DNA of 32,000 bases from an uncultured bacterium (GCA_963704705.1 OY969931.1:1140001-1172000); one strand, 5' to 3'; counted from the first letter of the stretch, positions 12,364 to 27,304 are shown. The notes: a model not told the origin generated them from the sequence alone. Made by a program: numbers and translations.

Positions 12364-12394
12364 CGTACAGCAAAAAGGGCAATCTGTCAAGCAG

Positions 12395-12766: not shown

Positions 12767-12772
12767 ATTTAT

Positions 12773-12778
12773 ATTTTA
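12773..12778 (-). promoter_or_regulatory. -10-like TAAAAT, 6 nt before the ATG of the 123-aa gene
   Basis: Read directly. It fits the recurrent N6 pattern. Confidence 0.4.
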
Positions 12779-12813
12779 ACCAATAAAATTATTTTCTGCC
12801 ACCTCTTATAGTG

Positions 12814-12842
12814 GTGACAAGCTAAAAAATCCATGTTATAAT
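12814..12842 (+). promoter_or_regulatory. Promoter GTGACA-N17-TATAAT with the ATPase ATG exactly 6 nt downstream (leaderless geometry)
   Basis: The hexamers, spacer and distance to the ATG at 12849 were counted base by base. Confidence 0.6.
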
Positions 12843-12848
12843 ATACTA

Positions 12849-15662
12849 ATGGAAACAAAAACAATCGAGCAAATCTATAAAGAATTAAACACATCAGCTG
12901 AAGGGCTAAGTTCTTCTGAAGCTGCTTCGCGTATTGAAAAATATGGTAAAAACGAACTTAAAACAAAAAAGAAAACACCATGGTGGGTTGCGTTTTTAAA
13001 GGAATTTGCAGATTTAATGGTAATTATCCTTATAATTGCCGCTGTTTTTGCTTATTTTGCAGGTGATACAAGAGACGCAGTAGTGATCTTCTTTATAGTA
13101 CTTTTAAATGCAATTATAGGCTACATTCAGGAATATAAAGCTGAAAAAGCAATTGAAGCACTTAAAAAAATGATGGCTCCAAATGCAAGAGTGATAAGAG
13201 GAGGCAAAGAAATTGAGATTAATGCCAAACTTCTAGTTCCGGGTGACATTATTGTTCTTCAGGAAGGGGACAAAATAACTGCCGATGCCAGAGTTATTGA
13301 AGAAAATGAGCTTGAAACACAGGAAGCAACTCTTACAGGCGAATCGACTCCGGTTTCAAAGCATTCAGAGCCCGGCGACCCATCAAACTTAATTTACATG
13401 GGAACAGATGTGGCTCATGGAAGCGGTAAAGCGGTTGTTATTAGTACTGGAATGCAAACCAAGTTCGGAAACATAGCAAAGCTAACTACTCAGACAAAAA
13501 AAGATAAAACCCCTCTTGAAAAAGAATTATTCAAACTTGGTATGTTCGTTGGAAAAATCACTTTGGTAATTTCAGCCATACTTATAGCGGTTGGTATTTT
13601 TATTCAGGGGCAAGACATTATATATGCATTTATATTTGCTGCTTCTGTTGCCGTTGCTGCAGTGCCTGAAGGTCTGCCTGCCACTGTAACCATAGCACTT
13701 GCATTTGGTGTTCAGCGTCTGGCTAAGAAAAAAAGTATTATCAGGCAGCTTTCATCGGTAGAAACTTTAGGTTCAACAACACATATTTGTACAGATAAAA
13801 CAGGCACGCTCACAAAAAATGAAATGACTGTTAAAAAAGTATATTTAAATGAATATGATGCACAGGTTGGCGGAGTGGGTTATATGCCATGGGGAGCGGT
13901 TCTGTTTAAATCAAAAACAAAACATCATTTTTTAATTGGTGATATTGATTCGCAGGAAGAGGAATTTGAAAAGAGAAAAACACAACTTGAAAAAATAAAA
14001 GCAGATGAAAAATCACTTTATGATTCACTTGAGATGTTGGGTACGATTTGCAATCTTTGTAATAATGCAGCACTTACACCTGAAGAGAATGAAAATCATG
14101 AAAGGGTTTATACAATGCTTGGAGATCCCACTGAAGGCGCACTTCTTACATTTGCTCAAAAAATAGGATTTAATCCTGATGAAACAAAAGAGAAATATAA
14201 AAAACTTCATGAGCTGGCTTTTGATTCGGATAGAAAAAGAATGAGTGTGATTATGAAAGATAATAAAACAGAGAAAAATTATGTATTCACAAAGGGCGCT
14301 CCGGATGCGCTTTTGGAAATTTCCAAAAAGATTATGATTAATGGAAGGATTATTAATCTGGATGAAGAAACAAAGAAAAAAATCCTTGAGAAAAATGAAA
14401 ACATGGCAAAACAGGCTTTAAGGGTGATTGGCTTTGCTTATAAAGAAATAGAAAATAAAGATCATTTTTCAATTAAAGAAGACGAGAGTGATTTGGTTTT
14501 TGTAGGATTGGTGGGAATGATTGATCCGCCAAGACGCGATATTAAAAGAGCCATTGTTCTGGCAAAAAAAGCCGGAATTAAAGTTTATATTGTAACCGGA
14601 GATCAGGGTCTTACTGCTGAAGCTATAGCAAAACAAATAGGTCTTGTTAATCATGGAGGCCATGAAATAATAACAGGCAAAGACCTCGCTGCAATGAAAG
14701 ACGAAGATCTGATAAAGATTTTTAAAGATCAGGAAAAAGAAGTTATTTTTGCAAGAACTTCGCCTGAAGACAAGCTTAGAATTGTTTCTTTATTAAAGAG
14801 CTTAGACCATGTTGTTGCTGTGACAGGTGACGGAGTAAATGACGCTCCTGCACTTAAACGTGCTGACATAGGTATTGCGATGGGTTTAACTGGAACAGAT
14901 GTTTCAAAAGAAGCATCTAATATGATACTTGCGGATGACAGCTTCTCAACAATAATTACCGCTGTTCAGGAAGGCCGCACGATTTATGAAAACCTTAAAA
15001 AATTCGTATTCTATATATTTAGTTGTAACACAGGTGAATTGATAGTTGTATTTAGTGCGGTTGTTTTTGCAATACCGGCACCTTTAACTGCAATTCTTAT
15101 TTTATGTGTTGATCTTGGAACAGATGTATTACCTGCGCTTGCGTTGGGTGTTGATCCTCCTGAAAAAGGCATTATGGAACTGCCGCCGCGTAGTCCAAAA
15201 GCTAAGATTATGGATCGCGCATTTATAGGCAGATTCCTTTATTTGGGATTATTCATTGGAGCAATTGTGGTTGGAACATACTTCTGGTCGCTATTTGAAC
15301 AGGGATGGCACTGGGGTGAGCCTCTTGCTGTAACAGATACAATGCATATAAAATCTTCAACATTTGCATTTGCGATTCTGGTATTAATTCAGATGGTTAA
15401 TGCTTATAACTCAAGAAGTTCAGTTAGATCGGTTTTTCAGATGGGATTCTTTAATAATTTATGGCTCTTGGGTTCTGTGGCTATTTCAGTTGCAACGGTT
15501 TACATGCTCGTTGAAGTACCTTTCTTTAATACATGGATTCACACTGCACCACTTGCATGGTATGAATGGCTTGTAATTATAGTCGGCTCATTCGCAATAC
15601 TGGTGGTTGAAGAAATACGTAAATTGGTGGTACGATTACGCATGCGTACAGTTAAATCATAA
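12849..15662 (+). CDS. P-type II (SERCA-like) cation-transporting ATPase, probably Ca2+
   Basis: Motifs include TGES, ICTDKTGTLT (phosphorylation site), TGDGVNDAPALK, the M4 motif PEGLP, M5 NTGE and M6 DLGTD. They resemble the Ca2+-site residues of P2A ATPases. Confidence 0.93.
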   Translation: METKTIEQIYKELNTSAEGLSSSEAASRIEKYGKNELKTKKKTPWWVAFLKEFADLMVIILIIAAVFAYFAGDTRDAVVIFFIVLLNAIIGYIQEYKAEKAIEALKKMMAPNARVIRGGKEIEINAKLLVPGDIIVLQEGDKITADARVIEENELETQEATLTGESTPVSKHSEPGDPSNLIYMGTDVAHGSGKAVVISTGMQTKFGNIAKLTTQTKKDKTPLEKELFKLGMFVGKITLVISAILIAVGIFIQGQDIIYAFIFAASVAVAAVPEGLPATVTIALAFGVQRLAKKKSIIRQLSSVETLGSTTHICTDKTGTLTKNEMTVKKVYLNEYDAQVGGVGYMPWGAVLFKSKTKHHFLIGDIDSQEEEFEKRKTQLEKIKADEKSLYDSLEMLGTICNLCNNAALTPEENENHERVYTMLGDPTEGALLTFAQKIGFNPDETKEKYKKLHELAFDSDRKRMSVIMKDNKTEKNYVFTKGAPDALLEISKKIMINGRIINLDEETKKKILEKNENMAKQALRVIGFAYKEIENKDHFSIKEDESDLVFVGLVGMIDPPRRDIKRAIVLAKKAGIKVYIVTGDQGLTAEAIAKQIGLVNHGGHEIITGKDLAAMKDEDLIKIFKDQEKEVIFARTSPEDKLRIVSLLKSLDHVVAVTGDGVNDAPALKRADIGIAMGLTGTDVSKEASNMILADDSFSTIITAVQEGRTIYENLKKFVFYIFSCNTGELIVVFSAVVFAIPAPLTAILILCVDLGTDVLPALALGVDPPEKGIMELPPRSPKAKIMDRAFIGRFLYLGLFIGAIVVGTYFWSLFEQGWHWGEPLAVTDTMHIKSSTFAFAILVLIQMVNAYNSRSSVRSVFQMGFFNNLWLLGSVAISVATVYMLVEVPFFNTWIHTAPLAWYEWLVIIVGSFAILVVEEIRKLVVRLRMRTVKS

Positions 15663-15665
15663 AGC

Positions 15666-15890
15666 ATGTACTTAAGAATAAAAGTTCATCCTAAATCAAA
15701 AGATTCGGGAGTGTTCGACACAATGGAGGACGGCACTTTAAAAGTGCGCGTTAAAGCACCGCCTGAAAAAGGCAAAGCAAACAAAGAGGTAATAAAGGTA
15801 TTAGCCAAAAAATATGGTGTTAAAAAGAGCGAAGTTGAAATTGTGAGCGGGGCTACCGATCAGATCAAACTAATAAAAATCTCCAAATGA
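15666..15890 (+). CDS. DUF167 (YggU-like) small protein
   Basis: LKVRVKAPPEKGKANKEVIKVLAKKYGVKKSEVEIVSGATDQIKLIKI matches the DUF167 pattern. Its stop overlaps the rsmA start (ATGA). Confidence 0.8.
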   Translation: MYLRIKVHPKSKDSGVFDTMEDGTLKVRVKAPPEKGKANKEVIKVLAKKYGVKKSEVEIVSGATDQIKLIKISK

Positions 15891-16612
15891 TTCAGGCGAA
15901 AAAATCTTTAGGCCAGAATTTCTTGAAAGACCGTTCGGTTTTGATGAAAATTGTTGAAGCTGCGGAGCTAAGCGATTCGGATTATGTTGTTGAAGTCGGG
16001 CCCGGTAAAGGTGTGCTGACCCACGAGTTGATTGAACGAGCCGGTCACGTTACGGCGATTGAGCTTGATCACAGGCTAATTCCTGAATTAAGTAAAATTG
16101 AAGGTTTGGATTTGATTCATGGAAACGCTTTGGACTTTCAGCCACCTGAAGAACCTTATAAGGTTGTTGCCAATATCCCCTACTATATAACTTCGCCTTT
16201 GATTTCGCACTTTCTTGAAGCTAAAGTGCGGCCAACAAAAATGGTTTTGCTTGTTCAAAAAGAAGTTGCGGAAAAAATCTGCGCCGAACCCGGTGATATG
16301 AATGTTTTGTCGATTCATGTTCAGGTTTTTGGGAAGCCGAGGATTGTATGTAATGTTAAGGCTTCGGCATTTGATCCAGCGCCAAAGGTTGATTCCGCTG
16401 TAATTGTGATTGATGTTTATGAAAAGCCTTTGGTTGAAGATTACAAGAAGTTCTTCGGAGTTGTTCATCGCGCTTTTAGCGGTAAGCGAAAAAAGCTTTC
16501 AAATACATTGCGGGATTTAAAGCCGCGATTGATTGAACTTGGCTTTCAGGACTTAAGACCGGAAAGGCTTAGTGTTGATGATTGGAAAAAATTGGGGATT
16601 GGGCAGTTTTGA
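15887..16612 (+). CDS. rsmA: 16S rRNA (adenine1518/1519-N6)-dimethyltransferase
   Basis: KKSLGQNFLKD, SAM motif VVEVGPGKGVLT, and NIPYYITSP. Confidence 0.93.
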   Translation: MIQAKKSLGQNFLKDRSVLMKIVEAAELSDSDYVVEVGPGKGVLTHELIERAGHVTAIELDHRLIPELSKIEGLDLIHGNALDFQPPEEPYKVVANIPYYITSPLISHFLEAKVRPTKMVLLVQKEVAEKICAEPGDMNVLSIHVQVFGKPRIVCNVKASAFDPAPKVDSAVIVIDVYEKPLVEDYKKFFGVVHRAFSGKRKKLSNTLRDLKPRLIELGFQDLRPERLSVDDWKKLGIGQF

Positions 16613-16624
16613 GACTTGCCTAGG

Positions 16625-17017
16625 TCAGGTGGGGTCGTCGGTGAAGTCGAAGGACTGCTGGGGATCGTTGGCTCTGAGTTGCTGTTCGTGAAGTTCTGCG
16701 AACTTGGGCAAGCCGTACACGGCTATATAAACCATCGTCAGCAAAACAGAAATATTGATCGTGCCGGGGTCTGTTGAGGGACTAAAATATTCAGCCATCA
16801 GCAGCAAAAGAAGAATTGCCAGATAAATCAGTGAAGAGAATAGTCTGAAGCGCTGTCTGATGCTGACGATACAGATGACGAGACCGAAGCCCAGTTGCAC
16901 CTGAAGAGACAGCATCGTCTTCCACTCGAAGTAGTCATGCAAACTCGCAAAAATAAAGAGCGGAATGATCAGCCAAAAGGACCTGAAGGCAATCCTGGCG
17001 ATCTGCTTCGTGGACAT
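16625..17017 (-). CDS. Orphan 130-aa membrane protein (about four hydrophobic segments) in a GC-rich patch
   Basis: Hydrophobic ORF. A hand count of 16625-16700 gives about 58% G+C, against about 34% in nearby host genes. A purine-rich GAAGGGGA lies 6 nt before the ATG, and the gene has its own consensus promoter at 17147-17175. Confidence 0.6.
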   Translation of the reverse strand: MSTKQIARIAFRSFWLIIPLFIFASLHDYFEWKTMLSLQVQLGFGLVICIVSIRQRFRLFSSLIYLAILLLLLMAEYFSPSTDPGTINISVLLTMVYIAVYGLPKFAELHEQQLRANDPQQSFDFTDDPT

Positions 17018-17146
17018 TTTATATCCCCTTCCCGGAAGTTATTCAACTTCCTGCAGTTGTTGTTCGAATCAAAGAGCGACAGTAGTTAGGTTTATTTCAG
17101 CTAAACCAAAAGCAAAGCGATTACACCTTATACTACCTGAATTAAA

Positions 17147-17175
17147 ATTATGCATTACTATTGTTATTTTGTCAA
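17147..17175 (-). promoter_or_regulatory. Consensus promoter TTGACA-N17-CATAAT for the GC-rich 130-aa membrane gene
   Basis: It lies immediately downstream of the pyrF stop and is followed by a ~120-nt leader. That leader carries the hairpin GGAAGTT-GAAT-AACTTCC just before the SD. Confidence 0.65.
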
Positions 17176-17179
17176 CCTA

Positions 17180-18106
17180 TTATAAAACTGATTTTAAATC
17201 TTCCTTCATAGCAATTACCGCTGCCCTTGCAGCTTCTGCGTAAGTCTTTTCATCGAATGAATCGTTTTTTTCATACGCAAAAATCACACCCCTTGAAGAG
17301 TTAACTATCGCACCCATTCCATCTTCATTAAAACACGCACGCACATCTTCTGCGCCTCCTCCTTGCGCGCCGTATCCCGGAACCAAAAATATTGAATTCG
17401 GCATAATTTTTCGCAATTTTTTTGCCTGTTCAGGATAAGTTGCGCCAACAACCGCTCCAACAAAACTATATCCGCTTTCACCAATATCGTCCGCTCCCCA
17501 TGAATCAACAAAGTTACCTAAAATTTCATAAACTGTGTTGCCATCATCCATTTTTAAATCCTGAAGATCAATTGATGTTGGATTTGAAGTTTTAACCAAA
17601 ATAAAAATACCTTTTCCGAATTTTCTGCAATTTTCAATAAAAGGCTTAATTCCGTCATATCCGAGATAAGGAGTAACCGTGATCGCATCAGCATCAAAAA
17701 CAGCCCGCGATTCACCATAAACATCAGTCATTCCCAAATATGCATCAGCGTAAGCTTTTGCAGTTGAACCAATATCATTTCGCTTAACATCAGCAATAAC
17801 TAAAAGCCCTTTGCTCTGGGCATAATCAATTGTTTCTTTAAAAGCCTGCATTCCGGGTGCTCCATAAATTTCATAAAATGCAATCTGCGGTTTAACACAT
17901 GGTACCAAATCATGAACCGCATCAATAATTCCTTTGTTAAATTCAATAATCGCTGCTGCTGCCGCAACAAACGGGTCTTTTTGTTCTTTTGCCGCTGCTT
18001 CAGTTATTTGCTGAGGAATCTGATTTAAACGCGGATCCAAGCCAACGCAAATCGCGCTGCCTTTAGCTTTAATTGCCTCATTCAATCTATCTGCAAAATT
18101 TTTCAT
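17180..18106 (-). CDS. pyrF: Orotidine-5'-phosphate decarboxylase, type 2
   Basis: ICVGLDPR and ADVKRNDIGSTAKAY motifs with a ~308-aa length typical of long-form PyrF. It is the last gene of the pyr operon. Confidence 0.9.
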   Translation of the reverse strand: MKNFADRLNEAIKAKGSAICVGLDPRLNQIPQQITEAAAKEQKDPFVAAAAAIIEFNKGIIDAVHDLVPCVKPQIAFYEIYGAPGMQAFKETIDYAQSKGLLVIADVKRNDIGSTAKAYADAYLGMTDVYGESRAVFDADAITVTPYLGYDGIKPFIENCRKFGKGIFILVKTSNPTSIDLQDLKMDDGNTVYEILGNFVDSWGADDIGESGYSFVGAVVGATYPEQAKKLRKIMPNSIFLVPGYGAQGGGAEDVRACFNEDGMGAIVNSSRGVIFAYEKNDSFDEKTYAEAARAAVIAMKEDLKSVL

Positions 18107-18109
18107 AAA

Positions 18110-18748
18110 TTATTTACGGTTAGGTCCCCATTCCTGAGGATTTTTGAAATATTCACGAACCTGCTGGGCTTCTTCTTCAGTTACATTTCCACCTTTAACT
18201 GCAACATCAAGCAACACTGAAACATTTGTTAAAGTAGAAGCTGCCACGCTTGCCTCTCTAAAGCCGTTTTCTGCTTTCTCGGTTCCATAAGTGAAAATAG
18301 CAAAAACATCATGAACAATGCCTTTGCCTTCACCTCTTAAAGCTTCAACGGTTTTAAGTGCGCTTCCGCCGGTCGTAATTAAATCTTCAATAACCAAAAT
18401 TGATTTTCCTTCAGGAAGATATCCTTCAATTTGTTTTCCTGCGCCGTGACCTTTTGGTTCAGATCTTACATAGACCATTGGCAATCCCATTATTTCAGCA
18501 ACAAATGCTGCCCATGGAATTCCCGCAGTTGAAGTTCCGGCAATATAATCAGGCTTCAATCCTTTTTCCTCAGCCATTTTCACAAGACCGTCCACAACAA
18601 CGCTTCGCTCATCAACATAAGAAATCAAAACACGGTTGTCAGTGTAGATTGGGCCTTTTAAACCAGAAGTATATTGAAAAGGTTCTTTAACATTTAATTT
18701 AACGGCATTCACCTTCAGCAGAATCTCCGCAACTTGGGGTGCAAGCAT
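18110..18748 (-). CDS. pyrE: Orotate phosphoribosyltransferase
   Basis: PRPP-binding motif ILVIEDLITTGGSALK and FQYTSGLKGPIYTDNR. The track start overlaps the pyrK 3' end by 50 nt. Confidence 0.92.
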   Translation of the reverse strand: MLAPQVAEILLKVNAVKLNVKEPFQYTSGLKGPIYTDNRVLISYVDERSVVVDGLVKMAEEKGLKPDYIAGTSTAGIPWAAFVAEIMGLPMVYVRSEPKGHGAGKQIEGYLPEGKSILVIEDLITTGGSALKTVEALRGEGKGIVHDVFAIFTYGTEKAENGFREASVAASTLTNVSVLLDVAVKGGNVTEEEAQQVREYFKNPQEWGPNRK

Positions 18749-19565
18749 TTTCTTTTGGGGTTATAAAATATTCTTTTTTTCCAACGCTGTCGCGATGATA
18801 TTTTCCAAAGTCATCAAACATTTTTGCGACTTTAAAGTTCATTACGGGTCCGCTTACGCAAGTTCTTATTCCAAGCGGATCAACAACGCACTGACCGCAG
18901 ACTCCGAATCCGCATTTCATGTATCGTTCTATTGAAACAAACGTATTAACACCTGCATTTTCTCCTATTTCTCCGACTTTTTGCATCATAATTTCAGGAC
19001 CGCATGTCATAATTTTATCAACTTTTACATCTTCTAAAACCTTCTTCAAAACTTCTGTGTTGTATCCTTTAAACCCTTCTGATCCGTCATCAGTTGAAAT
19101 ATGTAAATTCACATTTTCGAGCGCTTTTAATTTTTCCATATAAACCAAATTCTCTTTGCTTCGCGCTCCTTCAATAAATTCAATTTTGCATCCCATTTTT
19201 ACTGCTTCATGAGCAACAAAATAAAGTGGAGCCGCGCCATAACCTCCGCCAACAAGAGCCAATGTTTCACCTTCAACAAAATGAAAGTTTGTTCCGAATG
19301 GTCCCCTAATTCCAAGCTTATCTCCCACTTTCATTTTTGCCATTTCTTGAGTTGTTTTGCCACGCGAACAAATGGTTAAAACCAGCTGCTTGCCATCATC
19401 AAGCGCAATTGAGATTGGCTTTTCATCAACCCCGGGCATCCAAAGCATTACAAATTGGCCGGGTTTTGAATCCAAACTTATATCAAAATAAAAATTTTTA
19501 ACGATTTCATTTTCGTCTTCAATTTTTACAATTGGCACTACTTTTGGGAGTTGTTCTTTGTTCAT
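18699..19565 (-). CDS. pyrK: Dihydroorotate dehydrogenase B electron-transfer subunit
   Basis: FNR-like fold with a C-terminal 2Fe-2S motif CGFGVCGQCVV...C. ATGA overlap with pyrD. Confidence 0.9.
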   Translation of the reverse strand: MNKEQLPKVVPIVKIEDENEIVKNFYFDISLDSKPGQFVMLWMPGVDEKPISIALDDGKQLVLTICSRGKTTQEMAKMKVGDKLGIRGPFGTNFHFVEGETLALVGGGYGAAPLYFVAHEAVKMGCKIEFIEGARSKENLVYMEKLKALENVNLHISTDDGSEGFKGYNTEVLKKVLEDVKVDKIMTCGPEIMMQKVGEIGENAGVNTFVSIERYMKCGFGVCGQCVVDPLGIRTCVSGPVMNFKVAKMFDDFGKYHRDSVGKKEYFITPKENACTPSCGDSAEGECR

Positions 19566-20482
19566 AATTTTACGGTTCCGATTATTTCAGAGGCGTCCTT
19601 AACGCCGTTTTTGTCGCACCAGTCAGACATTTCTTGCGCAACCTTTCTAAAAACATCAGCGCCGCGGTAAAACACAGCTGAGCCGATTCCAACAAGTGTT
19701 GCGCCAGCCATCATAATTTCAAGCGCGTCTAAGCCTGTTGTTATTCCGCCTGTTCCTATTATTGGGAGTTTTGTTGCCTGATAAATGTCACTCACTTTTT
19801 TAACTGCGAGCGGTTTGATTGCGGGTCCGCTAATTCCGCCGACTTTGTTTGCTAAAATTGGCATTCTTGTTTCAAGATTTATTGCGAGTCCCGGGCCTAA
19901 AGTATTGATTGCACAAAATCCGTCCGCACCGCCTTCTGCGCATGCGTTAGCTATTTCTACAATGTTGGTCACGTTCGGACTAAGCTTAATTATAACCGGT
20001 TTGTTCTTTGCTACTTTTTTAACTTCTTGTGTTACTTGTTTTGCATCCATTGCAACACATGCAAAAGGCAGCCCGAGTTCATCTTCAACATTCGGACAAG
20101 AAATATTCACCTCGATAATATCCACATCAAGTTTATCAATCTCCTGCGCAATCTTTGAAAATTCATCTTTTTTGCCTGCCATAATGTTAGCAATTAATGG
20201 TGCAGGTTTATTTTTTGAATAAAGTGCGATCTCTTCTTTGGCTTTTTCTATACCCGCATCAGGAGCTCCAACCGCATTCATCATCCAGTGTTCTGTTGTT
20301 ATAATTGTTGGATTCGGATGGCCAATGTGTTCGTTAAGCCAGATTGATTTTGTTGTGATTCCGCCTGCACCACTGTTCACCACACTTTTCCATGTTGATG
20401 CGGTCACGCCTAAAACGCCTGAAGCTAGAACCGTTGGGTTCACAAATTCAGTTCCAAGATATTTTACTTTAAGGTTGGCCAT
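19562..20482 (-). CDS. pyrD: Dihydroorotate dehydrogenase, class 1B catalytic subunit
   Basis: Motifs include FVNPTVLASG, NISCPN, GGISGPAIKP and GTGGI. It is paired with pyrK. Confidence 0.93.
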   Translation of the reverse strand: MANLKVKYLGTEFVNPTVLASGVLGVTASTWKSVVNSGAGGITTKSIWLNEHIGHPNPTIITTEHWMMNAVGAPDAGIEKAKEEIALYSKNKPAPLIANIMAGKKDEFSKIAQEIDKLDVDIIEVNISCPNVEDELGLPFACVAMDAKQVTQEVKKVAKNKPVIIKLSPNVTNIVEIANACAEGGADGFCAINTLGPGLAINLETRMPILANKVGGISGPAIKPLAVKKVSDIYQATKLPIIGTGGITTGLDALEIMMAGATLVGIGSAVFYRGADVFRKVAQEMSDWCDKNGVKDASEIIGTVKL

Positions 20483-20488
20483 TTGGTT

Positions 20489-20494
20489 AATTTA
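20489..20494 (-). promoter_or_regulatory. -10-like TAAATT, 6 nt before the pyrD ATG
   Basis: Read directly. It would let pyrDKEF be expressed independently of the inserted cassette. Confidence 0.35.
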
Positions 20495-20588
20495 GGGTCC
20501 TTCAGAGACGCAAGTCTCTAGCGAGCAAAAACATATCGCGAGCTTAGCATGAGTCCCGCTAAGCGGGATGAATTCCTTTAATATTTAA

Positions 20589-20633
20589 TCATAAAAGTAG
20601 GAGGCTGACTAGGAAAAGATTTAAGTGTTTCAT
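20589..20633 (-). CDS. Possible 14-aa hydrophobic micro-ORF (MKHLNLFLVSLLLL)
   Basis: Hand translation. GGAGGG lies 5 nt upstream of the ATG. The ORF is very short, so it is only tentative. Confidence 0.25.
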   Translation of the reverse strand: MKHLNLFLVSLLLL

Positions 20634-20643
20634 ATTTGCCCTC

Positions 20644-20781
20644 CTACTTGATGATCCCATACACGATGAGTCCCAGAAGCACTATGCAGAAGACTATAAG
20701 TCTGATGTACAGCCATACTGCTTCGGCATCTTCGATCGCCTTGAGTTCCTCAGGTGTCGGGTTCTCAAACATTTTAAACAC
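20644..20781 (-). CDS. 45-aa single-TM micro-protein (GTG start; 42 aa if ATG at 20772)
   Basis: Hand translation (M)FKMFENPTPEELKAIEDAEAVWLYIRLIVFCIVLLGLIVYGIIK. AGGAGG at 20789-20794 lies 7 nt before the GTG. It is below the ORF-track cutoff. Confidence 0.5.
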   Translation of the reverse strand: MFKMFENPTPEELKAIEDAEAVWLYIRLIVFCIVLLGLIVYGIIK

Positions 20782-20818
20782 TTCGGTTCCTCCTTTCTAG
20801 TCAGCCGTTAGCTGACGT

Positions 20819-20962
20819 TCAAGCGAACAAAACAACGAGATCTGCAACTGCAAGCGCAAAAGCACCATGAACCATGTAGTTCGGATTGCTAAGCGCAACA
20901 ATAGCAGCCCCAAATCCGACAACAAATGCTCCAACGCAAAGTGCTGCCATAAGTTTAGACAA
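20819..20962 (-). CDS. 47-aa two-TM micro-protein (TTG start; 43 aa if ATG at 20950)
   Basis: It is the C-terminal part of the track's 106-aa ORF. AGGGGGG lies 5 nt before the TTG. Sequence: (M)SKLMAALCVGAFVVGFGAAIVALSNPNYMVHGAFALAVADLVVLFA. Confidence 0.45.
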   Translation of the reverse strand: MSKLMAALCVGAFVVGFGAAIVALSNPNYMVHGAFALAVADLVVLFA

Positions 20963-20985
20963 TTTTGCCCCCCTTTTTACAATAT

Positions 20986-21102
20986 CTAGCTCAGGTTGAT
21001 GTTTTGGTAGATGCAGAACCCCACGAACAGAGCCTCTGTTCCTACCATGAAAGCAAAAATCAAAACGTCCCAATGCTTTTGGATCCACTTGCGAGTCGTC
21101 AT
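20986..21102 (-). CDS. 38-aa single-TM micro-protein
   Basis: Verified codon by codon as MTTRKWIQKHWDVLIFAFMVGTEALFVGFCIYQNINLS. GGAGGG at 21110-21115 lies 7 nt before the ATG. It is in a different frame from the track's 106-aa ORF. Confidence 0.5.
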   Translation of the reverse strand: MTTRKWIQKHWDVLIFAFMVGTEALFVGFCIYQNINLS

Positions 21103-21122
21103 TCTGTGTCCCTCCGTTTAAC

Positions 21123-21148
21123 GCCAGCCCTGTTTTCAAAGGACCAGC
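21123..21148 (-). promoter_or_regulatory. Conserved 5'-leader hairpin, copy A (minus strand GCTGGTCCT-TTGAAAAC-AGGGCTGGC), upstream of the 38-aa ORF
   Basis: 26-nt element paralogous to 21685-21710. The stem is kept through G-U wobbles that work only on the minus-strand RNA. Confidence 0.55.
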
Positions 21149-21284
21149 ACTAAAACACTTTGTTTGAAGGTTTGTAGCGCAAAAAACCCTTTAAGGTGAG
21201 TATAGTAAAGTATTTAAAATTTTAAAACAAGTTTTTATTTGGGAATTCGGCTGGCGGGGTTGTTGTGCCGAATTGGAAGGATTC

Positions 21285-21527
21285 TCATGACTTTGGCTTT
21301 AGTGCGATGATGAGAAGATAGATCATGAGACCTATCAATCCCAATGCACAAAGCGATGCACATATTCCGAAAATGATCGAACCCAGAGCAAAGGGCTTGC
21401 CTCCGGCCACGAAACGGTCGGCATCACAGCATGAGAGCATGAGAAGAAAGGTGAGAAGCCCGATGCATGCAAACAGCATCAGTGCTTTTTTGATGGGAGA
21501 GGGCTCGTAAGGTTCAAGTTTCTTCAT
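21285..21527 (-). CDS. 80-aa two-TM micro-protein
   Basis: ORF-track entry with hydrophobic segments ALMLFACIGLLTFLLML and LGSIIFGICASLCALGLIGLMIYLLIIAL. The ATG overlaps the stop of the upstream 46-aa ORF (ATGA). AAGGAA lies upstream. Confidence 0.6.
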   Translation of the reverse strand: MKKLEPYEPSPIKKALMLFACIGLLTFLLMLSCCDADRFVAGGKPFALGSIIFGICASLCALGLIGLMIYLLIIALKPKS

Positions 21528-21664
21528 GGTTTCCTTTCATGTAAGTTTACGTTGCAGCTTGGGGCCTTTAAATCTCCTCTTTCGAGTGAAACCGAGAATC
21601 CCAAGGCCAGCATCAGTGCCATCAGCACGAATGCGAACAACACGAACGCGTTACTTCCCTTCAC
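21524..21664 (-). CDS. 46-aa N-terminally hydrophobic micro-protein (GTG start)
   Basis: Verified codon by codon as (M)KGSNAFVLFAFVLMALMLALGFSVSLERGDLKAPSCNVNLHERKP. GGAGGA at 21671-21676 lies 6 nt before the GTG. It is translationally coupled to the 80-aa ORF. Confidence 0.5.
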   Translation of the reverse strand: MKGSNAFVLFAFVLMALMLALGFSVSLERGDLKAPSCNVNLHERKP

Positions 21665-21684
21665 TTTTTGTCCTCCAATTTTCC

Positions 21685-21710
21685 GCCAGCCTGATTTTCA
21701 AAGGTCTGGC
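21685..21710 (-). promoter_or_regulatory. Conserved 5'-leader hairpin, copy B (minus strand GCCAGACCT-TTGAAAATC-AGGCTGGC), upstream of the 46-aa ORF
   Basis: It has the same position relative to the SD/start as copy A. Confidence 0.55.
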
Positions 21711-21782
21711 TAAATCTGCTTGTTTTGCGATTCTAACCTAATCCTTTGGAAAAGAATTAAAGCACAGGGTAAACAAATTTGC

Positions 21783-21809
21783 AAATAGTCAAATTTTCCC
21801 CGGGGAAAA
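21783..21809. repeat. 27-nt exact repeat AAATAGTCAAATTTTCCCCGGGGAAAA, copy 1, abutting the pyrC stop codon; likely the pyrBC terminator
   Basis: It contains the 16-bp perfect palindrome TTTTCCCCGGGGAAAA. On the minus strand this is followed by TTTGACTATTT. It is identical to 29052-29078. Confidence 0.9.
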
Positions 21810-23117
21810 CTATAATGAAACCTCGGCACCCTTCAAATCTCCTGAATTTACTATCTTGCCATCTTTCATTCCCAATATACCATTAACAAATGTCATTACT
21901 GGCCAGCCTTTGAGCTTTCGGCCATTGTACGGTGACCATCCGCATTTGGTATAAAGCTCAGAATTCTTGACCTCACGCATCAAATTCATATCAACAACAG
22001 TTAAATCAGCGTCATAACCTGCTTTAATTTGCCCCTTTTTCTTTAAACCGAATAATTCAGCAGGTTTTCTGCTCAACAATTCAACAACATGTTTTAATTC
22101 AATTTTCTCATCATTAACAGCATTAAGCATTAAAGCCAGCGTAGTATCAAGTTCGGGAATTCCTGATGGAGCTTCAATATAAGGTTTTTCTTTCTCTTTT
22201 TTCAGATGCGGAGCATGATCCGACGCTATTATTGTAATTATTCCGTCATTTAATGCCTTCCACAAAACATCTTGATCGTGCTGGCCGCGCACAGGCGGAT
22301 TAACTTTAATAAAATTTCCTAGCCTGACATAATCGCGAATCGCCAAAAATAAATGGTGCGGAGCAACTTCGCATGTAATTTTTTTGCTGCCGAATTTACG
22401 CATTAAGCCAACTTCTTTTTTAGTGCTCATGTGGCAAAGATGCAATCTGCCCTCTGTTTTTTTTGCAATGTGTATTGCTTTTTTTGCTGCCTCAAAAGCT
22501 ATTTCGTCGCTGCGAATTAAGCTGTGCACTTCAGGTGTGTTGTCGCCTTTATATGTATCAGCGTGTTTTTTCATCAGACTTTCATCTTCAGCATGAATCG
22601 CAACAATACGCTCTGTTGAATTAAGCATTTTTTCCAAAACTTCAGATGACTTTTCTATACCGTCCTTAATTTGAATTCCTGTTGTTGCACCCATATAAAC
22701 TTTATATCCAACAATACCTTCAGCTTTCATACACTCATCAAAGTTGTCAGGCCCTGCTCCAAAAAACAAACCATAATTCACCAAAGCCTTCTTGCTAATA
22801 ATCGCGCGTTTTGCCTCAAGCGCCTTAACTGTTGTTGTTGGAGGTTTTGTATTAGGCATGTCAAAAACAGTTGTGAAACCTCCTGCTAAAGCTGCCTTTG
22901 AACCTGTTGTCCAGTCCTCCTTTTCTTCGTTACCAGGTGTTCTAAAATGAACATGAGCGTCAATACAGCCCGGAATCAAATATTTACCTGTTAAATTATA
23001 TTCTTTATCAGCTTTCACATTAATTGTTTCTGCAACCTTTTCGATTACTGCGCCGTTCACAAGCACATCTTTGGTTGTTCCGTCAGCTAATTTTGCATTT
23101 TTGAATAGGGTTTTCAT
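21810..23117 (-). CDS. pyrC: Dihydroorotase
   Basis: Amidohydrolase metal motif CIDAHVHFRTPG, then HLCHMST and ASDHAPH. ATGA overlap with pyrB. Confidence 0.93.
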   Translation of the reverse strand: MKTLFKNAKLADGTTKDVLVNGAVIEKVAETINVKADKEYNLTGKYLIPGCIDAHVHFRTPGNEEKEDWTTGSKAALAGGFTTVFDMPNTKPPTTTVKALEAKRAIISKKALVNYGLFFGAGPDNFDECMKAEGIVGYKVYMGATTGIQIKDGIEKSSEVLEKMLNSTERIVAIHAEDESLMKKHADTYKGDNTPEVHSLIRSDEIAFEAAKKAIHIAKKTEGRLHLCHMSTKKEVGLMRKFGSKKITCEVAPHHLFLAIRDYVRLGNFIKVNPPVRGQHDQDVLWKALNDGIITIIASDHAPHLKKEKEKPYIEAPSGIPELDTTLALMLNAVNDEKIELKHVVELLSRKPAELFGLKKKGQIKAGYDADLTVVDMNLMREVKNSELYTKCGWSPYNGRKLKGWPVMTFVNGILGMKDGKIVNSGDLKGAEVSL

Positions 23118-24004
23118 GCTAGGAGTGTTAAGAGCGCCATCCTTACAGCAACTCCATATTCAACCTGTTTAAAATATTTTGCGTTTTCCATCTCATCCAC
23201 ATCATGCGAAATTTCATGAACTCGTGGAAGCGGGTGCATAATTATAGCATTCGGACACAATTCTTCAATCAGCTTTTTATTCAAAATATATACATCTTTT
23301 AATGTTTCATATTCCTGACTGTCAGCAAACCTTTCCTGTTGGATTCTTGTGCAGTACAAAACATCAGCCTCTTTAATGCCCTCCTTAAAATCTTCTGATT
23401 CTTCATATTTAATTCCCTTTTCATCCAAAAACTCTTTAACTTCAGGCTTCATTTTAAGTTCAGGAGGAGAAACAAATTTAAATTCAACATCATAATTCGC
23501 AAGCAGATAAGCCAGAGAATTCGGACATCTTCCATATCTCAGATCACCGGTCATCACAACTTTAAGTCCATCAAGCTTTCCCAGTTCTTTTTGAATCGTA
23601 AATAAATCCAATAATGCCTGAGTTGGATGCTGGCCAGCCCCGTCGCCTGCATTTATAACCGGAACGCTTGAGTTTTTCGCGAAAATAGTTGCTGAACCAC
23701 TGTCTGGATGTCTTACAACAATCACATCCGCAAACTTAGAAACAACTTTTGCAGTGTCATCAAGAGTTTCGCCTTTAACAATTGAACTAGCACCTACATC
23801 AGTCACACTAATTACACTGCCTCCTAACTTATGCATTGCTGTTTCAAATGAAAGGCGTGTACGTGTAGAAGGCTCATAAAAAAGGGCTGCGAGGATCTTT
23901 CCTTTTAAATCGTCACCTCTGTAATTCAAAAAAGACTCAGCTTTCTGAAGTATCTCTTCAATTTCTTTTTTAGAAAGCTGTTCTGAGTTAAGTAAATGTT
24001 GCAT
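23114..24004 (-). CDS. pyrB: Aspartate carbamoyltransferase catalytic subunit
   Basis: STRTRLSFE, HPTQALLD and HPLPR motifs. Confidence 0.95.
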   Translation of the reverse strand: MQHLLNSEQLSKKEIEEILQKAESFLNYRGDDLKGKILAALFYEPSTRTRLSFETAMHKLGGSVISVTDVGASSIVKGETLDDTAKVVSKFADVIVVRHPDSGSATIFAKNSSVPVINAGDGAGQHPTQALLDLFTIQKELGKLDGLKVVMTGDLRYGRCPNSLAYLLANYDVEFKFVSPPELKMKPEVKEFLDEKGIKYEESEDFKEGIKEADVLYCTRIQQERFADSQEYETLKDVYILNKKLIEELCPNAIIMHPLPRVHEISHDVDEMENAKYFKQVEYGVAVRMALLTLLA

Positions 24005-24012
24005 GCTACTTG

Positions 24013-24018
24013 ATTATA
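24013..24018 (-). promoter_or_regulatory. -10 TATAAT, 8 nt before the pyrB ATG
   Basis: Read directly on the minus strand as TATAAT-caagtagc-ATG. Confidence 0.4.
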
Positions 24019-24090
24019 ATTGTAAACAGTTTAACACTTTACAAAAAAATTCAAAGTGGTAAGATCTCCACCTATACATAATCTAAAAAT

Positions 24091-24999
24091 ATGTCAGAAA
24101 AATTAATTTTAAATAAACCTAATAAAGCAATTGATTGTATGAAAAGATGGATGGCAATGGATTTTGAACAAATGTCCGACACTGATCATTTTGCTGCATT
24201 CTATGGTTATTGCGAAATGTTAGCTGAAGAACTTGAATCAACACAAGGTATTGATTTAAGTATTATAAAAAATAAATTAAATAAAATGCTGGGTACCTAT
24301 AAAGAATTAATGGACATACGTTACCCTGATGCTATGTCAGGATTAGATTCCAGTTATTCTCATTTTACTCCATTGGAAAGGATTTCAATGCGAAACGAGC
24401 CTATGCTTCTTGAAATTAGTATGAATCAGTTAATGATTGAATTCAAAGAAATTGCTGAAAGACTCCTTGAAATGATTGAAGATGATGAATCCCCTGACAA
24501 AGTATATGATTTCAAAATTCTGGGAGATGATGTTGAGCAACAACTGGAAAGTATTGTAGGAGAAGTTGAATCATTATCAACCATTCCTGATGATGTTGAA
24601 ATGGACAGACTTATTTTTAGAAATTTATACGAGCATACAAGTATTCTTTTACAGCTTATAATTGAAAGAGGTAAATTAATCAGCCTATCACAAGAAGATA
24701 CTGATAAATTCATAGGCATGATAACTGCTATAGAAGAGGTTTTATTTGATGCTGAAATTGATCAAAACCGGCTTAAAGATGGCTACGATGAAATGGCTAA
24801 AGTAGCGCAAACTTTTCTGAATCGAATAAAAGTAACTCCTGAAGAACTTGAAGCAAATCAGACAGAAAGGGACGAATTTAATGATATTGCAGTAGGAAGC
24901 ACTTTGGGCGCGGTAGTCGAAGGAGTACGTGAAAAACTTATGGGCGCTTTGGTATTAATTAAAGGTGATAGACCTAAAGACCCATCCCAAAGTAATTAA
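24091..24999 (+). CDS. Orphan 302-aa highly acidic helical protein
   Basis: Clean ORF with host-like composition. No motif was recognised. Its 3' end overlaps the ugd 3' end by 26 nt (convergent). Confidence 0.6.
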   Translation: MSEKLILNKPNKAIDCMKRWMAMDFEQMSDTDHFAAFYGYCEMLAEELESTQGIDLSIIKNKLNKMLGTYKELMDIRYPDAMSGLDSSYSHFTPLERISMRNEPMLLEISMNQLMIEFKEIAERLLEMIEDDESPDKVYDFKILGDDVEQQLESIVGEVESLSTIPDDVEMDRLIFRNLYEHTSILLQLIIERGKLISLSQEDTDKFIGMITAIEEVLFDAEIDQNRLKDGYDEMAKVAQTFLNRIKVTPEELEANQTERDEFNDIAVGSTLGAVVEGVREKLMGALVLIKGDRPKDPSQSN

Positions 25000-26167
25000 A
25001 ACCGGCCAGCCTTACTTCATCCGGTTCATAAATATTTCGGCCATCAATCAATGTGTCGCCTTTCATTAATCTGCGCGCTTTTTTAAGGTCGAGCCCCTTA
25101 AATTCATCCCACTCGGTAAGGATAATCAGTGCGTCGGAATCATCACAAACTTCATATGGATTTTGGCATGTATTGTGTTTAGATTTTGCCTGAGGATCGT
25201 AGCAAGCCACATTTGCGCCTTCTTTGTGAAGTGCATTGATTATTTCAAGTGATGGAGCGTCGCGCATGTCATCGGTATTTGGCTTAAACGAAAGCCCTAA
25301 AATACCAATTCTTCTTCCGCGTAAATCCATTTGAGATTTTAATTTTTCAATGACTCTTTGTTTTTGGATTTTGTTTGCTTTGTCAGCGCCGCGCAGTACA
25401 AGAAAGTCGTTTTCTTCTGATTGATTTAAGATCGCCTGTAGATCTTTTGGAAGGCATGATCCTCCGAAACCAACTCCGGCTTCCAAAAATTCAGGGCCGA
25501 TTCGTGTGTCGTATTTAAGAGATTGCTGAAGTTTTTTAAAATCAGCTCCTGTTTTTTCGCAATAATTCGCGAATTCATTAATAAAAGAAATCTTTGTTGC
25601 AAGATAAGCGTTTGCAGCATATTTGCTAAGTTCTGCGGTTTTTAAATCAGTAAAAATAATCGGAGAATCAAATGGTTCATACAATTGCTGCATAATCGCT
25701 TTGCTTTCTTCATTTTCAGTTCCAACAACAATTCTGTCTGGTTCAAGCGTGTCTTTTATTGCGCTGCCCTGACGCAAAAACTCAGGATTCATTATTACAT
25801 TTTCATTGTTGATTTCACTGCAGGTACCAAGCGGAACAGTTGACTTCATAACAAAAAAATCACCCTTATTTGCATGCTTTTCAATTACCTCGTTAACTGC
25901 TGTTAAATCAACTTTGCCATCAGCATCGCTCGGAGTTCCAACACAGCACATTACAATATCAGCTTTATTAAAATCCAAATCAAAACTTAAATTTTGATTG
26001 GACAAAAGTTCCGAAAGCCCTGGTTCAAAAAACGGAGCCTCCCTTTTTTTTAGTTGCGTGATTTTTTCTGCATTCTTATCTATGCAAATAACTTCATGCC
26101 CCTGCCTGGCAAAACATGCTCCTGTAATTAAGCCAACATAACCAGTACCTATAATCGCAATTTTCAT
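24974..26167 (-). CDS. ugd: UDP-glucose 6-dehydrogenase family protein
   Basis: N-terminal Rossmann motif MKIAIIGTGYVGLITGACFA and catalytic-Cys motif GFGGSCLPKD. The family is clear; the exact sugar nucleotide is not determinable by eye. Confidence 0.88.
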   Translation of the reverse strand: MKIAIIGTGYVGLITGACFARQGHEVICIDKNAEKITQLKKREAPFFEPGLSELLSNQNLSFDLDFNKADIVMCCVGTPSDADGKVDLTAVNEVIEKHANKGDFFVMKSTVPLGTCSEINNENVIMNPEFLRQGSAIKDTLEPDRIVVGTENEESKAIMQQLYEPFDSPIIFTDLKTAELSKYAANAYLATKISFINEFANYCEKTGADFKKLQQSLKYDTRIGPEFLEAGVGFGGSCLPKDLQAILNQSEENDFLVLRGADKANKIQKQRVIEKLKSQMDLRGRRIGILGLSFKPNTDDMRDAPSLEIINALHKEGANVACYDPQAKSKHNTCQNPYEVCDDSDALIILTEWDEFKGLDLKKARRLMKGDTLIDGRNIYEPDEVRLAGFNYFGMGL

Positions 26168-26173
26168 GTTTGA

Positions 26174-26179
26174 ATTTTA
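26174..26179 (-). promoter_or_regulatory. -10-like TAAAAT, 6 nt before the ugd ATG
   Basis: Read directly. Confidence 0.4.
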
Positions 26180-26230
26180 CAACATTTTTTATACTTGCGT
26201 AAGTATATGTGTTTTATATAGAATCAATCA

Positions 26231-27304
26231 ATGATGAAGAAAGCATTTTTAGTCCTTGAGGACGGCACAAAATTAGAAGGAACTTCTTTTGGAGCAGATA
26301 CTGATTCTGCGGGAGAGGTAGTTTTTAATACAGGAATGACGGGGTATCCTGAGAGCTTAACTGATCCATCTTATAAGGGCCAGATACTTACTTTCACTTA
26401 TCCGCTTATTGGCAACTATGGCGTGCCCGGAGACGAGAAAGATGAATTTAAAATCCTTAAAAATTTCGAAAGCGGACAAATCCAGGTTAAAGGACTTGTA
26501 GTCAGCGAATACTGCGAAAAACCAAGCCACTGGAACAGCAAAAAAACACTCGGCCAATGGCTGAAAGAGCAAAAAATCCCTGCAATAAGCGGAATCGACA
26601 CAAGGGCTCTCACGCAAAAACTTCGCGAAAAAGGAACAATGCTTGGAAAAATAATGCGTGATCCATCAAAAGAACTCGCATTCTACAACCCTGACCTTGA
26701 AAATGTTGTTGCAGAAGTTAGCTGTAAAAAACCAATCGAATATAAGGCAGGCAGAAAAAAAGTCGTTTTAATTGATTGCGGTGCAAAAAACAATATTGTC
26801 CGAAGTTTGCTGGCCCGAAATTTAACAGTAATAAAAGTGCCATGGAACTATGATTTTATTGAAAAAGGATTGAAATTTGACGGGGTGTTTATTTCTAACG
26901 GTCCCGGAGACCCTGCGGTTGTAAAAGAGACTCACGAAATAATTAAAAAATGCTTAAAATCAGACAAACCCATAATGGGAATCTGCCTTGGAAATCAAAT
27001 AATGGCAATTGCTGCCGGTGGTCAGACTTATAAATTAAAATACGGACACAGAGCGCAAAATCAGCCTTGCATAGATGTTAATACCGGACGCTGTTACATT
27101 ACTTCGCAAAACCATGGGTTTGCTGTAAAAGCGAAAACACTTCCTAAAGGTTTTGAACCTTTATTTATTAATGCAAACGATAAAACAGTTGAAGGAATCA
27201 AACATACACGAAAACCTTTTATGGCAGTGCAATTCCACCCCGAAGCAACACCGGGACCAAACGACACAAATTACCTTTTTGATGAATTTGCTGGAAAACT
27301 TTAA
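26231..27304 (+). CDS. carA: Carbamoyl-phosphate synthase small (glutaminase) subunit
   Basis: Class I GATase triad context GICLGNQ, HGF and QFHPE. The CPSase small-chain N-domain has TGMTGYPESLTDPSYKGQILTFTYPLIGNYG. Confidence 0.95.
   Translation: MMKKAFLVLEDGTKLEGTSFGADTDSAGEVVFNTGMTGYPESLTDPSYKGQILTFTYPLIGNYGVPGDEKDEFKILKNFESGQIQVKGLVVSEYCEKPSHWNSKKTLGQWLKEQKIPAISGIDTRALTQKLREKGTMLGKIMRDPSKELAFYNPDLENVVAEVSCKKPIEYKAGRKKVVLIDCGAKNNIVRSLLARNLTVIKVPWNYDFIEKGLKFDGVFISNGPGDPAVVKETHEIIKKCLKSDKPIMGICLGNQIMAIAAGGQTYKLKYGHRAQNQPCIDVNTGRCYITSQNHGFAVKAKTLPKGFEPLFINANDKTVEGIKHTRKPFMAVQFHPEATPGPNDTNYLFDEFAGKL

Follow-up and report, generated by a model that had tools for sequence, protein, structure and literature searches.

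What occupies a 1.3-kb gap in an operon whose other genes partly overlap? This question is raised by a stretch of 32,000 nucleotides from an uncultured bacterium (GCA_963704705.1, OY969931.1:1140001-1172000), called the window throughout, in which pyrC and pyrD of an operon of pyr genes are separated by a long spacer. An earlier note on this DNA had described the spacer as a cassette of six small open reading frames (ORFs) and had suggested that it was acquired from a foreign donor. We compared the spacer with related loci and, with moderate confidence, favor a different explanation, namely that it is a resident, fast-evolving accessory island of a marine Peregrinibacteria clade and not a fresh import. 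Most likely, it is a hypervariable island of envelope proteins that has its own expression signals.

The pyr operon is interrupted between pyrC and pyrD

Pfam searches identified, on the minus strand, pyrB (23114-24004), pyrC (21810-23117) and pyrD (19562-20482), followed by pyrK, pyrE and pyrF. Four-nucleotide overlaps join pyrB to pyrC and pyrD to pyrK, and the pyrC-pyrD spacer comprises positions 20483-21809, i.e. 1327 nt. The overlaps and the interruption were therefore as the earlier note had described them, and all six of its ORFs were found on the operon strand of the spacer. Extension of the sequence to the left of the window revealed only ribosomal protein genes.

The pyrD gene of the window is 77-91% identical to those of single-cell genomes and metagenome-assembled genomes (MAGs) labelled Peregrinibacteria, Peribacteria or Patescibacteria; the highest match, with up to 95% identity, was to a metagenome contig of the Joint Genome Institute. 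The related loci and assemblies that were compared are designated L001-L028, and about 60 kb were sampled per genome neighbourhood.

Because base composition changes stepwise at the spacer, it could be argued that foreign DNA and the operon were joined in a chimeric assembly. However, an independent Logan assembly (L028) matched window positions 10541-27017 (16.5 kb) with two mismatches, i.e. with 99.99% identity, and it spanned both junctions, so that the gap is not an assembly artefact. The earlier note had proposed to check the junctions for chimerism, and both are intact in the independent assembly. Furthermore, the same pyrC-pyrD architecture was seen in single-cell genomes, MAGs and several metagenomes, and a chimera is almost certainly not the explanation.

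The spacer contains five small genes for predicted membrane proteins

Five of the six ORFs, which encode 46, 80, 38, 47 and 45 aa and are called p46, p80, p38, p47 and p45, are arranged in two units. Unit A consists of p46 and p80, which are translationally coupled, and unit B consists of p38, p47 and p45. The same five ORFs occur in the same order in two close lineages (L020 and L022-L027), and their lengths, start positions and Shine-Dalgarno (SD) sites are kept among relatives. Pairwise ratios of nonsynonymous to synonymous divergence (dN/dS) were between 0.10 and 0.59, and most comparisons were significantly below neutrality (three-way comparisons, mostly P<0.05). The values of the pyr genes were 0.045-0.11, those of the small ORFs being 2-8 times higher. 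Judged by these comparisons, the five ORFs are real genes.

The constraint was seen gene by gene. For p46, dN/dS was 0.10-0.19 (P<=6.5e-4), and homologues were found in L020, L022 and L001. For p80 it was 0.19-0.59, for p38 it was 0.22-0.38, with a homologue in L002, and for p45, which is 78-87% identical in L020 and L022, it was 0.27-0.33 (P<=0.03). The length of p47 is 47-48 aa in seven of seven family members, and its homologues have an ATG at the position of the TTG of the window.

The five products are predicted to be membrane proteins with one or two helices. Hydropathy maxima over 15 residues were 2.3-3.1 in five of the six ORFs. One hydrophobic helix each was found in p46, p38 and p45, which are all shorter than 50 aa, whereas AlphaFold2 predicted two helices for p47 (residues 3-25 and 27-46, predicted local distance difference test (pLDDT) 87) and two long helices for p80 (residues 11-40 and 46-76, pLDDT 70). 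The earlier description of the ORFs as hydrophobic and transmembrane (TM)-like thus holds, as a prediction, for five genes. The N-terminus of p80 reads MKKLEPYEPSPIKK and then ALMLFACIGLLTFLLML, and contains the charged n-region and the hydrophobic h-region of a signal peptide; its C-terminal helix carries a basic tail. At the place of a lipobox ([LVI][ASTVI][GAS]C), MLSC is present in the window, L020 and L022, the canonical LSGC in L007 and L014, and deviating sequences in L003 and L001.

A tandem duplication had been proposed for the pairs p46 plus p80 and p38 plus p47. This was true only of the leaders: leader B is a 44-nt direct repeat of leader A with 73% identity. In contrast, hhalign related neither p46 to p38 nor p80 to p47 (probability <1%), and paralogy of the ORF modules was therefore rejected. 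The apparent duplication of modules is explained by the leader hairpin that is common to both units.

The sixth ORF, of 14 aa, does not belong to the set of genes. Its presumed SD motif is the 5' arm of a terminal hairpin of about 10 bp (GUAGGAGGnC/GCCUCCUAC), which is followed by UUUU and has an identical fold in nine loci; L005 contains two compensatory pairs. The nucleotides are conserved, but the reading frame is not (MKHLNLFLVSLLLL versus MxTLKSFPSQPPTFMIKx in relatives). A conserved leader peptide was rejected because two frames exist among relatives and L003 has no ATG. The cassette of six hence became five genes plus a terminator-like element, namely a nucleotide-conserved hairpin and its U tract.

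A hairpin, a U tract and a short SD-led ORF directly upstream of pyrD might also indicate that the spacer is a non-coding regulator of the pyr genes, with attenuators or leader peptides and only incidental ORFs. In E. coli pyrL and in PyrR attenuation of Bacillus, a short ORF in a hairpin with a U tract likewise precedes a pyr gene. However, here the frame of the short ORF is not conserved, and a conserved promoter-like box lies between the hairpin and pyrD. Rfam searches yielded nothing at the gathering threshold in the whole window and, at E<=5, only two chance eukaryotic matches in the gap; neither a PyrR site nor another family was detected. A regulatory spacer would also not account for five ORFs with conserved lengths under purifying selection, or for a content that varies between 0.95 and 4.4 kb among relatives, and we regard it as highly improbable.

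SD motifs and third codon positions set the small genes apart

The earlier note had claimed that the small ORFs are SD-led in an otherwise SD-free background, and quantification bore this out. Duplex energies were computed against the canonical anti-SD sequence, which may not be the 16S tail of the host itself, and were -5.6 to -11.6 kcal/mol for the six ORFs of the gap, in comparison to a mean of +0.3 and a minimum of -5.4 for 31 long host genes. The difference between the five real ORFs and the host genes was significant (Mann-Whitney P = 2e-4), and the contrast persisted with the variant 16S tails CUUCC and UUCCC, which are given for other Peregrinibacteria in the S4 table of PMC10783764; the same paper lists Peribacter riflensis as SD-scarce. 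An SD-like motif is missing in 31 of the 32 long genes of the window, the exception being the ORF 16625-17017, and the regions upstream of the host genes are nearly devoid of G. In contrast, the small ORFs and their homologues in relatives have a purine-rich motif 5-10 nt before the start codon. Three of the five small genes have non-ATG starts (GTG or TTG).

The base composition also differs. The G+C content is 44.1% in the gap, 37.1% in the window and 38.7% in pyrC. The G+C content of the window peaks here: of all segments of 1327 nt, no more than 1.1% are as rich, and nearly all of these overlap the gap. A single 300-nt segment within the gap reaches 50%. Thus, the gap is indeed GC-richer, but the previously given values of 47-50% versus about 34% in pyrC were overstated. 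The difference resides in the third codon position: the five small ORFs have a third-position G+C content (GC3) of 0.53 and 32 host genes one of 0.28 +/- 0.09, whereas the first and second positions are equal. Therefore, amino acid composition does not explain it.

Both properties extend to the relatives. Across all genomes, the island genes have a GC3 of 0.5-0.66 and SD-led starts, whereas the surrounding housekeeping genes have neither. Among 122 long ORFs from nine loci, every GC3 outlier but one has a strong SD motif; the outliers include kinases, which are described below (GC3 0.57-0.66), and a 130-aa membrane orphan of the window. The lone outlier without a strong SD motif (GC3 0.47, SD energy -4.1) is a 105-aa frame that covers the p80 homologue of L001. 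As the contrast is localized in GC3 and reaches clade-wide, the original observation is stronger than had been stated.

The 130-aa orphan (16625-17017) is the only other SD-led gene of the window, and a perfect 7-bp hairpin is located immediately 5' of its SD motif. In L020 the gene is absent and its place is taken by a 41-aa ORF without an SD motif. The locus looks like a second variable spot flanking pyrDKEF. Two large orphan ORFs of the window, 10615-12336 (-, 573 aa) and 24091-24999 (+, 302 aa), have no Pfam match, a G+C content of 29-33% and no SD motif, so that the signature of the island is not common to all orphans of this DNA.

Some features of the host genes were also recorded. A TATAAT-like box begins 10-17 nt 5' of the ATG (mostly -12 to -15) in about ten genes, most of which are apparently the first of their operon; examples are 24005-24020 (pyrB), 12835-12848 and 26217-26230. 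The proximity of these boxes to the ATG suggests that host mRNAs are leaderless, in contrast to the long leaders of the island. Tandem heptamers TACTAAT/ACTAATT, in 2-4 copies, directly precede several ribosomal protein genes (upstream of 287, 6005, 6404 and 6836, +) and may act in this lineage as a signal for expression or translation that does not involve an SD motif.

Islands occupy the same site in related genomes

To the earlier note, the deviating composition and SD usage pointed to horizontal acquisition, possibly from a higher-GC, SD-using donor, and a recent import of this kind is also consistent with the orphan character of the protein families. The distribution of the island tells against it. 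In all informative relatives (pyrD 77-95% identical), an island of 0.95-4.4 kb lies between pyrC and pyrD or directly upstream of pyrD (L001-L004, L006-L010, L012, L014, L015 and L020-L027). The comparison of gene order that had been suggested as a check thus found the island in every informative locus; wherever sequence upstream of pyrD was available, its site was the same, down to a pyrD identity of 77%.

The substitution pattern gave a similar picture. When close lineages are compared, the small ORFs and the flanking genes have similar synonymous divergence (dS). When synonymous changes were polarized by parsimony, 20 weak-to-strong and 23 strong-to-weak changes were counted in the island, which corresponds to an equilibrium GC3 of 0.54 at a current value of 0.57; for pyrC and pyrD the counts were 100 and 64 at a GC3 of 0.31. 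Although the counts are small, they give no sign that GC3 decays toward the host composition. Flank-like dS and stable GC3 argue against recent import and toward a signature that is stably maintained, presumably by selection or by biased gene conversion associated with recombination.

A donor or a vehicle was also searched for. No ORF for a mobility gene, such as an integrase or transposase, and no flanking direct repeat were found in the gap. The p47 profile had six matches among 5.8 billion proteins and the p80 profile three matches among 1.84 billion cluster representatives, all from this clade, and the 130-aa orphan retrieved only itself. Neither the leader motif nor a relative of p80 was present in the viral contigs of IMG/VR (the p47 alignment was too variable for such a scan), and phage origin was rejected on these grounds. 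When the five small proteins and the 130-aa ORF were compared with Pfam, PHROGs, PADLOC and NCBIfam, no match had an E-value below 0.1. The recent import of a cassette is therefore largely refuted by synteny already and, all evidence taken together, very unlikely.

Resident as it appears to be, the island evolves fast. While the pyrD proteins of the compared genomes are 76-93% identical, identity between the kinases encoded in their islands is no more than 29-47%. The p80 protein is a mosaic: in the signal part, identity is 88-97% to L020 and L022 and drops to 29% for L014 and L003, whereas the mature part, with the loop motif DRFVxGGKPFAxGSII, is nearest to L014 and L003, and L022 has the E(D/N)PF type of L007, L001 and L010. 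Even close relatives differ by whole units. Elements present in some islands and absent from others are the kinase, units of 28 and 50 aa and an ORF of 206 aa; for example, the 28-aa unit is found in L022 and L007 and not in the window.

A protein kinase is variably present in the island

In most relatives (L001, L002, L004, L007-L010, L012 and L014), a single-pass protein of 570-670 aa with an N-terminal Pkinase domain (Hanks-type Ser/Thr) is encoded between units A and B. The kinase is missing at the locus in the window, L020, L022, L003 and L006, and none is encoded anywhere in the 32 kb. Its presence in most relatives indicates that the island of the window has lost it. Conversely, L004 and L008, which are the deepest of the relatives, encode the kinase alone, with no micro-ORFs. 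The island kinases match generic Ser/Thr kinase models only, below curated cut-offs. Past the TM helix they share a basic C-terminal domain of about 170 aa that contains Cys and Trp and has no Pfam match.

This arrangement raises the question of whether the micro-proteins modulate the kinase by binding to its TM helix or outer domain, in the style of MgrB or SafA on PhoQ. Units of micro-ORFs flank the kinase in L001, L002, L007, L009, L010 and L014, and they have the SD and GC3 signature and the leader motif of the kinase. Like MgrB and SafA, they would be single-pass proteins of about 40-80 aa that are encoded beside, or act on, a membrane kinase. However, they have no homology to MgrB, SafA or other known modulators, and the kinase is of the Hanks type and not a histidine kinase. 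Furthermore, the small ORFs are under purifying selection although the five loci named above are devoid of the kinase, and L004 and L008 have retained the kinase without micro-ORFs. Kinase modulation is, in our view, unlikely.

Conserved elements surround both units

Each unit has a conserved leader hairpin, strong SD sites and a terminal hairpin, and in every unit of every locus a box GGCTGRC (GGCUGRC in the leader RNA) upstream is matched by its complement, GYCAGCC, downstream. The coordinates of these and the other features are compiled in Table 1.

Unit A is preceded by a TG.TTTAATT box that is invariant in nine loci and is, by its consensus, a candidate extended -10 promoter. The leader hairpin (consensus GCCrGaCC-UUUGAAAAU-GGCUGGC) and the SD motif follow about 45-65 nt downstream. 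For leader hairpin A, RNAalifold predicted eight pairs; all variants are compatible with G-U wobble pairs, and none is compensatory on both sides. Because the changes are of the wobble type and never two-sided, the structure is plausible but unproven. RNAalifold supported no further structure beyond these eight pairs, and fold z-scores of single sequences were weak (-0.8 to -2.0). The search with nhmmer found one full copy of the hairpin per locus; a partial or shorter copy is located before unit B in every locus and before the kinase in some.

The 3' hairpin of unit A contains CCGCCAGCC, the complement of the leader box. In L014 both partners are altered (leader GGCUGGUGG, 3' element CCACCAGCC), and a compensatory change in the long-range 5'-3' duplex was seen in one lineage only. 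Because the same box builds several local hairpins, the 5'-3' complementarity may be a by-product. The bracketing boxes fit equally well with pairing of RNA ends, a shared protein-binding site or recombination joints.

Between the terminal hairpin and pyrD, the TGATTAAAT box is embedded in a motif TTTTATGMTTAAAT that is conserved or nearly so in all loci. These consensus-level features would fit a model in which the island transcript is terminated and pyrDKEF restart separately. The adjacent 76-nt insertion is missing in L025 and the other relatives, and 40 nt of it recur in inverted orientation in L014 at 1741-1780; in L020, another insertion, of about 75 nt, is located nearby. The element resembles a small mobile repeat.

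At the other end of the spacer, a perfect 16-nt palindrome, TTTTCCCCGGGGAAAA, directly follows the pyrC stop codon (about 21790-21805, -). In L022 and L007 its position is filled by the extra 28-aa membrane-ORF unit. CCCGGG-centred palindromes were considered as marks of the island borders and rejected, as they occur in coding regions as well.

The best promoter-like match of the region is in the antisense orientation: TAGACA-16-TACAAT at 20956-20983 (+) agrees at 10 of 12 positions and faces p38. The equivalent in L022 is TTGACA-16-TACAGT, and no antisense terminator is evident. An antisense RNA is possible at this site.

Small hydrophobic proteins, structured leaders and a candidate antisense RNA are reminiscent of type I toxin-antitoxin loci such as hok/sok, tisB/istR and aapA/isoA, in which membrane-toxin peptides are held in check by leader structure, 5'-3' pairing of the mRNA and an antisense RNA. 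Similar to the peptides of less than 60 aa of these systems, p46, p38 and p45 have a single TM helix and a strong SD motif; complementary 5' and 3' boxes surround every unit, and the distribution is restricted to one lineage. However, the units are polycistronic and coupled; an 80-aa protein similar to lipoproteins belongs to them and, in relatives, so does a kinase. Pairing of the 5' and 3' boxes would leave the SD motif uncovered, the antisense promoter is only partly conserved (L020, L022), and neither PADLOC nor Pfam gave a match. In our estimation, toxin-antitoxin loci are quite unlikely, and the toxin/immunity and holin-like roles put forward in the earlier note are no more than guesses.

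Table 1. Coordinates of the features of the pyrC-pyrD spacer and of associated elements
Feature	Position	Strand	Remarks
Box TGcTTTAAT, extended -10-like	21756..21764	-	Candidate promoter of unit A
Leader hairpin A, GCCAGACC-UUUGAAAAUCA-GGCUGGC	21685..21710	-	Followed by SD GGAGG (21672-21676)
p46 gene, GTG start	21524..21664	-	N-terminal TM helix and conserved motif GDLKxPSC
p80 gene, ATGA overlap with p46	21285..21527	-	Signal-peptide-like helix, MLSC/C, short variable loop, C-terminal TM helix
3' hairpin of unit A, stem AAUUCGGC/GCCGAAUU	21244..21274	-	CCGCCAGCC in loop and 3' arm; conserved in eight loci
TTTAAA-16-TATACT, promoter-like	21199..21226	-	Candidate promoter of unit B; consensus scan only
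Leader hairpin B, GCUGGUCC-UUUGAAAACA-GGGCUGGC	21123..21148	-	Followed by SD GGAGGG (21110-21115); direct repeat of leader A
p38 gene	20986..21102	-	Predicted single-pass membrane protein; 82% identity to counterparts in L020 and L022
p47 gene, TTG start	20819..20962	-	Predicted two-helix hairpin with conserved NPxY turn
p47-p45 hairpin, GUCAGC-UAACG-GCUGAC	20800..20816	-	Formed from the same box
p45 gene, GTG start	20644..20781	-	Acidic N-terminus, C-terminal TM helix
Terminal hairpin GUAGGAGGGC...GCCUCCUAC and UUUU	20592..20650	-	Terminator-like; encloses the 14-aa ORF and its presumed SD motif
14-aa ORF	20589..20633	-	Sixth ORF of the earlier note
Box TGATTAAAT 5' of pyrD	20583..20591	-	Candidate extended -10; near-invariant block in alignment
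76-nt insertion between box TGATTAAAT and pyrD ATG	20498..20573	-	Three small hairpins; lineage-specific
130-aa membrane orphan, 3' of pyrF	16625..17017	-	Multi-pass; SD -7.9 kcal/mol, GC3 0.65
Island kinases of relatives	L001 3459-5171; L007 2799-4697; L008 3817-5823; L004 279-2114; L010 2379-4100

Discussion

A fixed site between core genes, a variable content and a divergence far above that of the flanks characterize flexible genomic islands, and all three were found for the pyrC-pyrD spacer. In these respects, as well as in a deviating composition and a putatively envelope-related cargo, it resembles marine hypervariable islands such as the hypervariable region 2 (HVR2) of SAR11 and the islands of Prochlorococcus. 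In contrast to those, it is only 1-4 kb long, lies within a biosynthetic operon, contains micro-ORFs with or without one kinase, and has its own mode of SD initiation together with shared leader and bracket motifs; the variability described here is that between genomes.

The following model would be compatible with these properties. A separate extended -10 promoter would drive each unit, transcription of the island would end at the last hairpin with its U tract, and pyrDKEF would restart from their own conserved box. The long, structured leaders would make SD motifs necessary, whereas the other genes appear to be leaderless or to start in an AU-rich context. The proteins would reside in the cell membrane in one- or two-helix forms and expose only short, highly variable loops, and p80 may be lipid-anchored. 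They might be components of the envelope or surface that formerly acted alongside the kinase. Frequent recombination under diversifying pressure from phage or from contact with a host would drive the turnover, and GC-biased gene conversion that accompanies it may keep GC3 high.

Several points weigh against this interpretation. The envelope role is inferred throughout, and family, fold and context yield no biochemical lead. A role linked to the kinase is not required, because the window has no kinase and its small genes are nevertheless constrained. Promoters and terminator are proposed from consensus sequences; the loop of the terminal hairpin is unusually large for an intrinsic terminator, and the U tract is lost in L020. 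Biased gene conversion enters the model as speculation, and the polarized counts behind it are small. The rarity of the SD-led, GC3-rich class refers to the sampled neighbourhoods of about 60 kb and not to whole genomes. Finally, pairing of the SD motifs with the ribosome depends on the 16S tail, and related Peribacteria are listed with CUUCC instead of CCUCC (PMC10783764). The Rfam scan of the 32-kb window found no rRNA gene; a 16S tail complementary to GGAGG or AAGGAAGG, if present, would favor true SD usage.

A more specific reading of the same elements would be that the island is an array of micro-cassettes, each composed of a leader hairpin with GGCUGRC, an SD motif, tiny membrane ORFs or a kinase, and a complementary 3' hairpin. 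Through recombination at the boxes, Peregrinibacteria genomes would acquire, lose and exchange cassettes. These would be expressed via an SD-dependent, GC3-rich second translation class of which the remaining, SD-free genes make no use, and the boxes would also pair in the RNA to define or process each transcript. This combination of assumptions appears rather unlikely to us, and we prefer the less elaborate hypervariable island.

Strong SD motifs in a few genes of an SD-avoiding genome are not without precedent. In Flavobacteria, rpsU is a rare SD-led gene in a genome that is otherwise depleted of G upstream of the starts, as is the case here. However, rpsU is a ribosomal gene under autoregulation, whereas the SD-led set of the present lineage consists of accessory, GC3-rich and hypervariable membrane genes.

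Bacteria of the candidate phyla radiation are thought to live attached to other cells, and their fast-evolving surface components are barely known. The locus offers five new orphan families of micro-proteins with evidence of selection, and, as a small hypervariable island with a fixed place between two housekeeping genes, it can readily be located and compared across metagenomes. It also offers, within a single genome, a clean natural comparison of genes with and without an SD motif, which matters as the reported 16S tails of this phylum depart from the canonical anti-SD. If it is true that SD motifs and high GC3 mark a class of genes that is separately translated or driven by recombination, this would bear on the partitioning of initiation in SD-poor bacteria, and on how accessory genes can keep a foreign-looking composition without being foreign.

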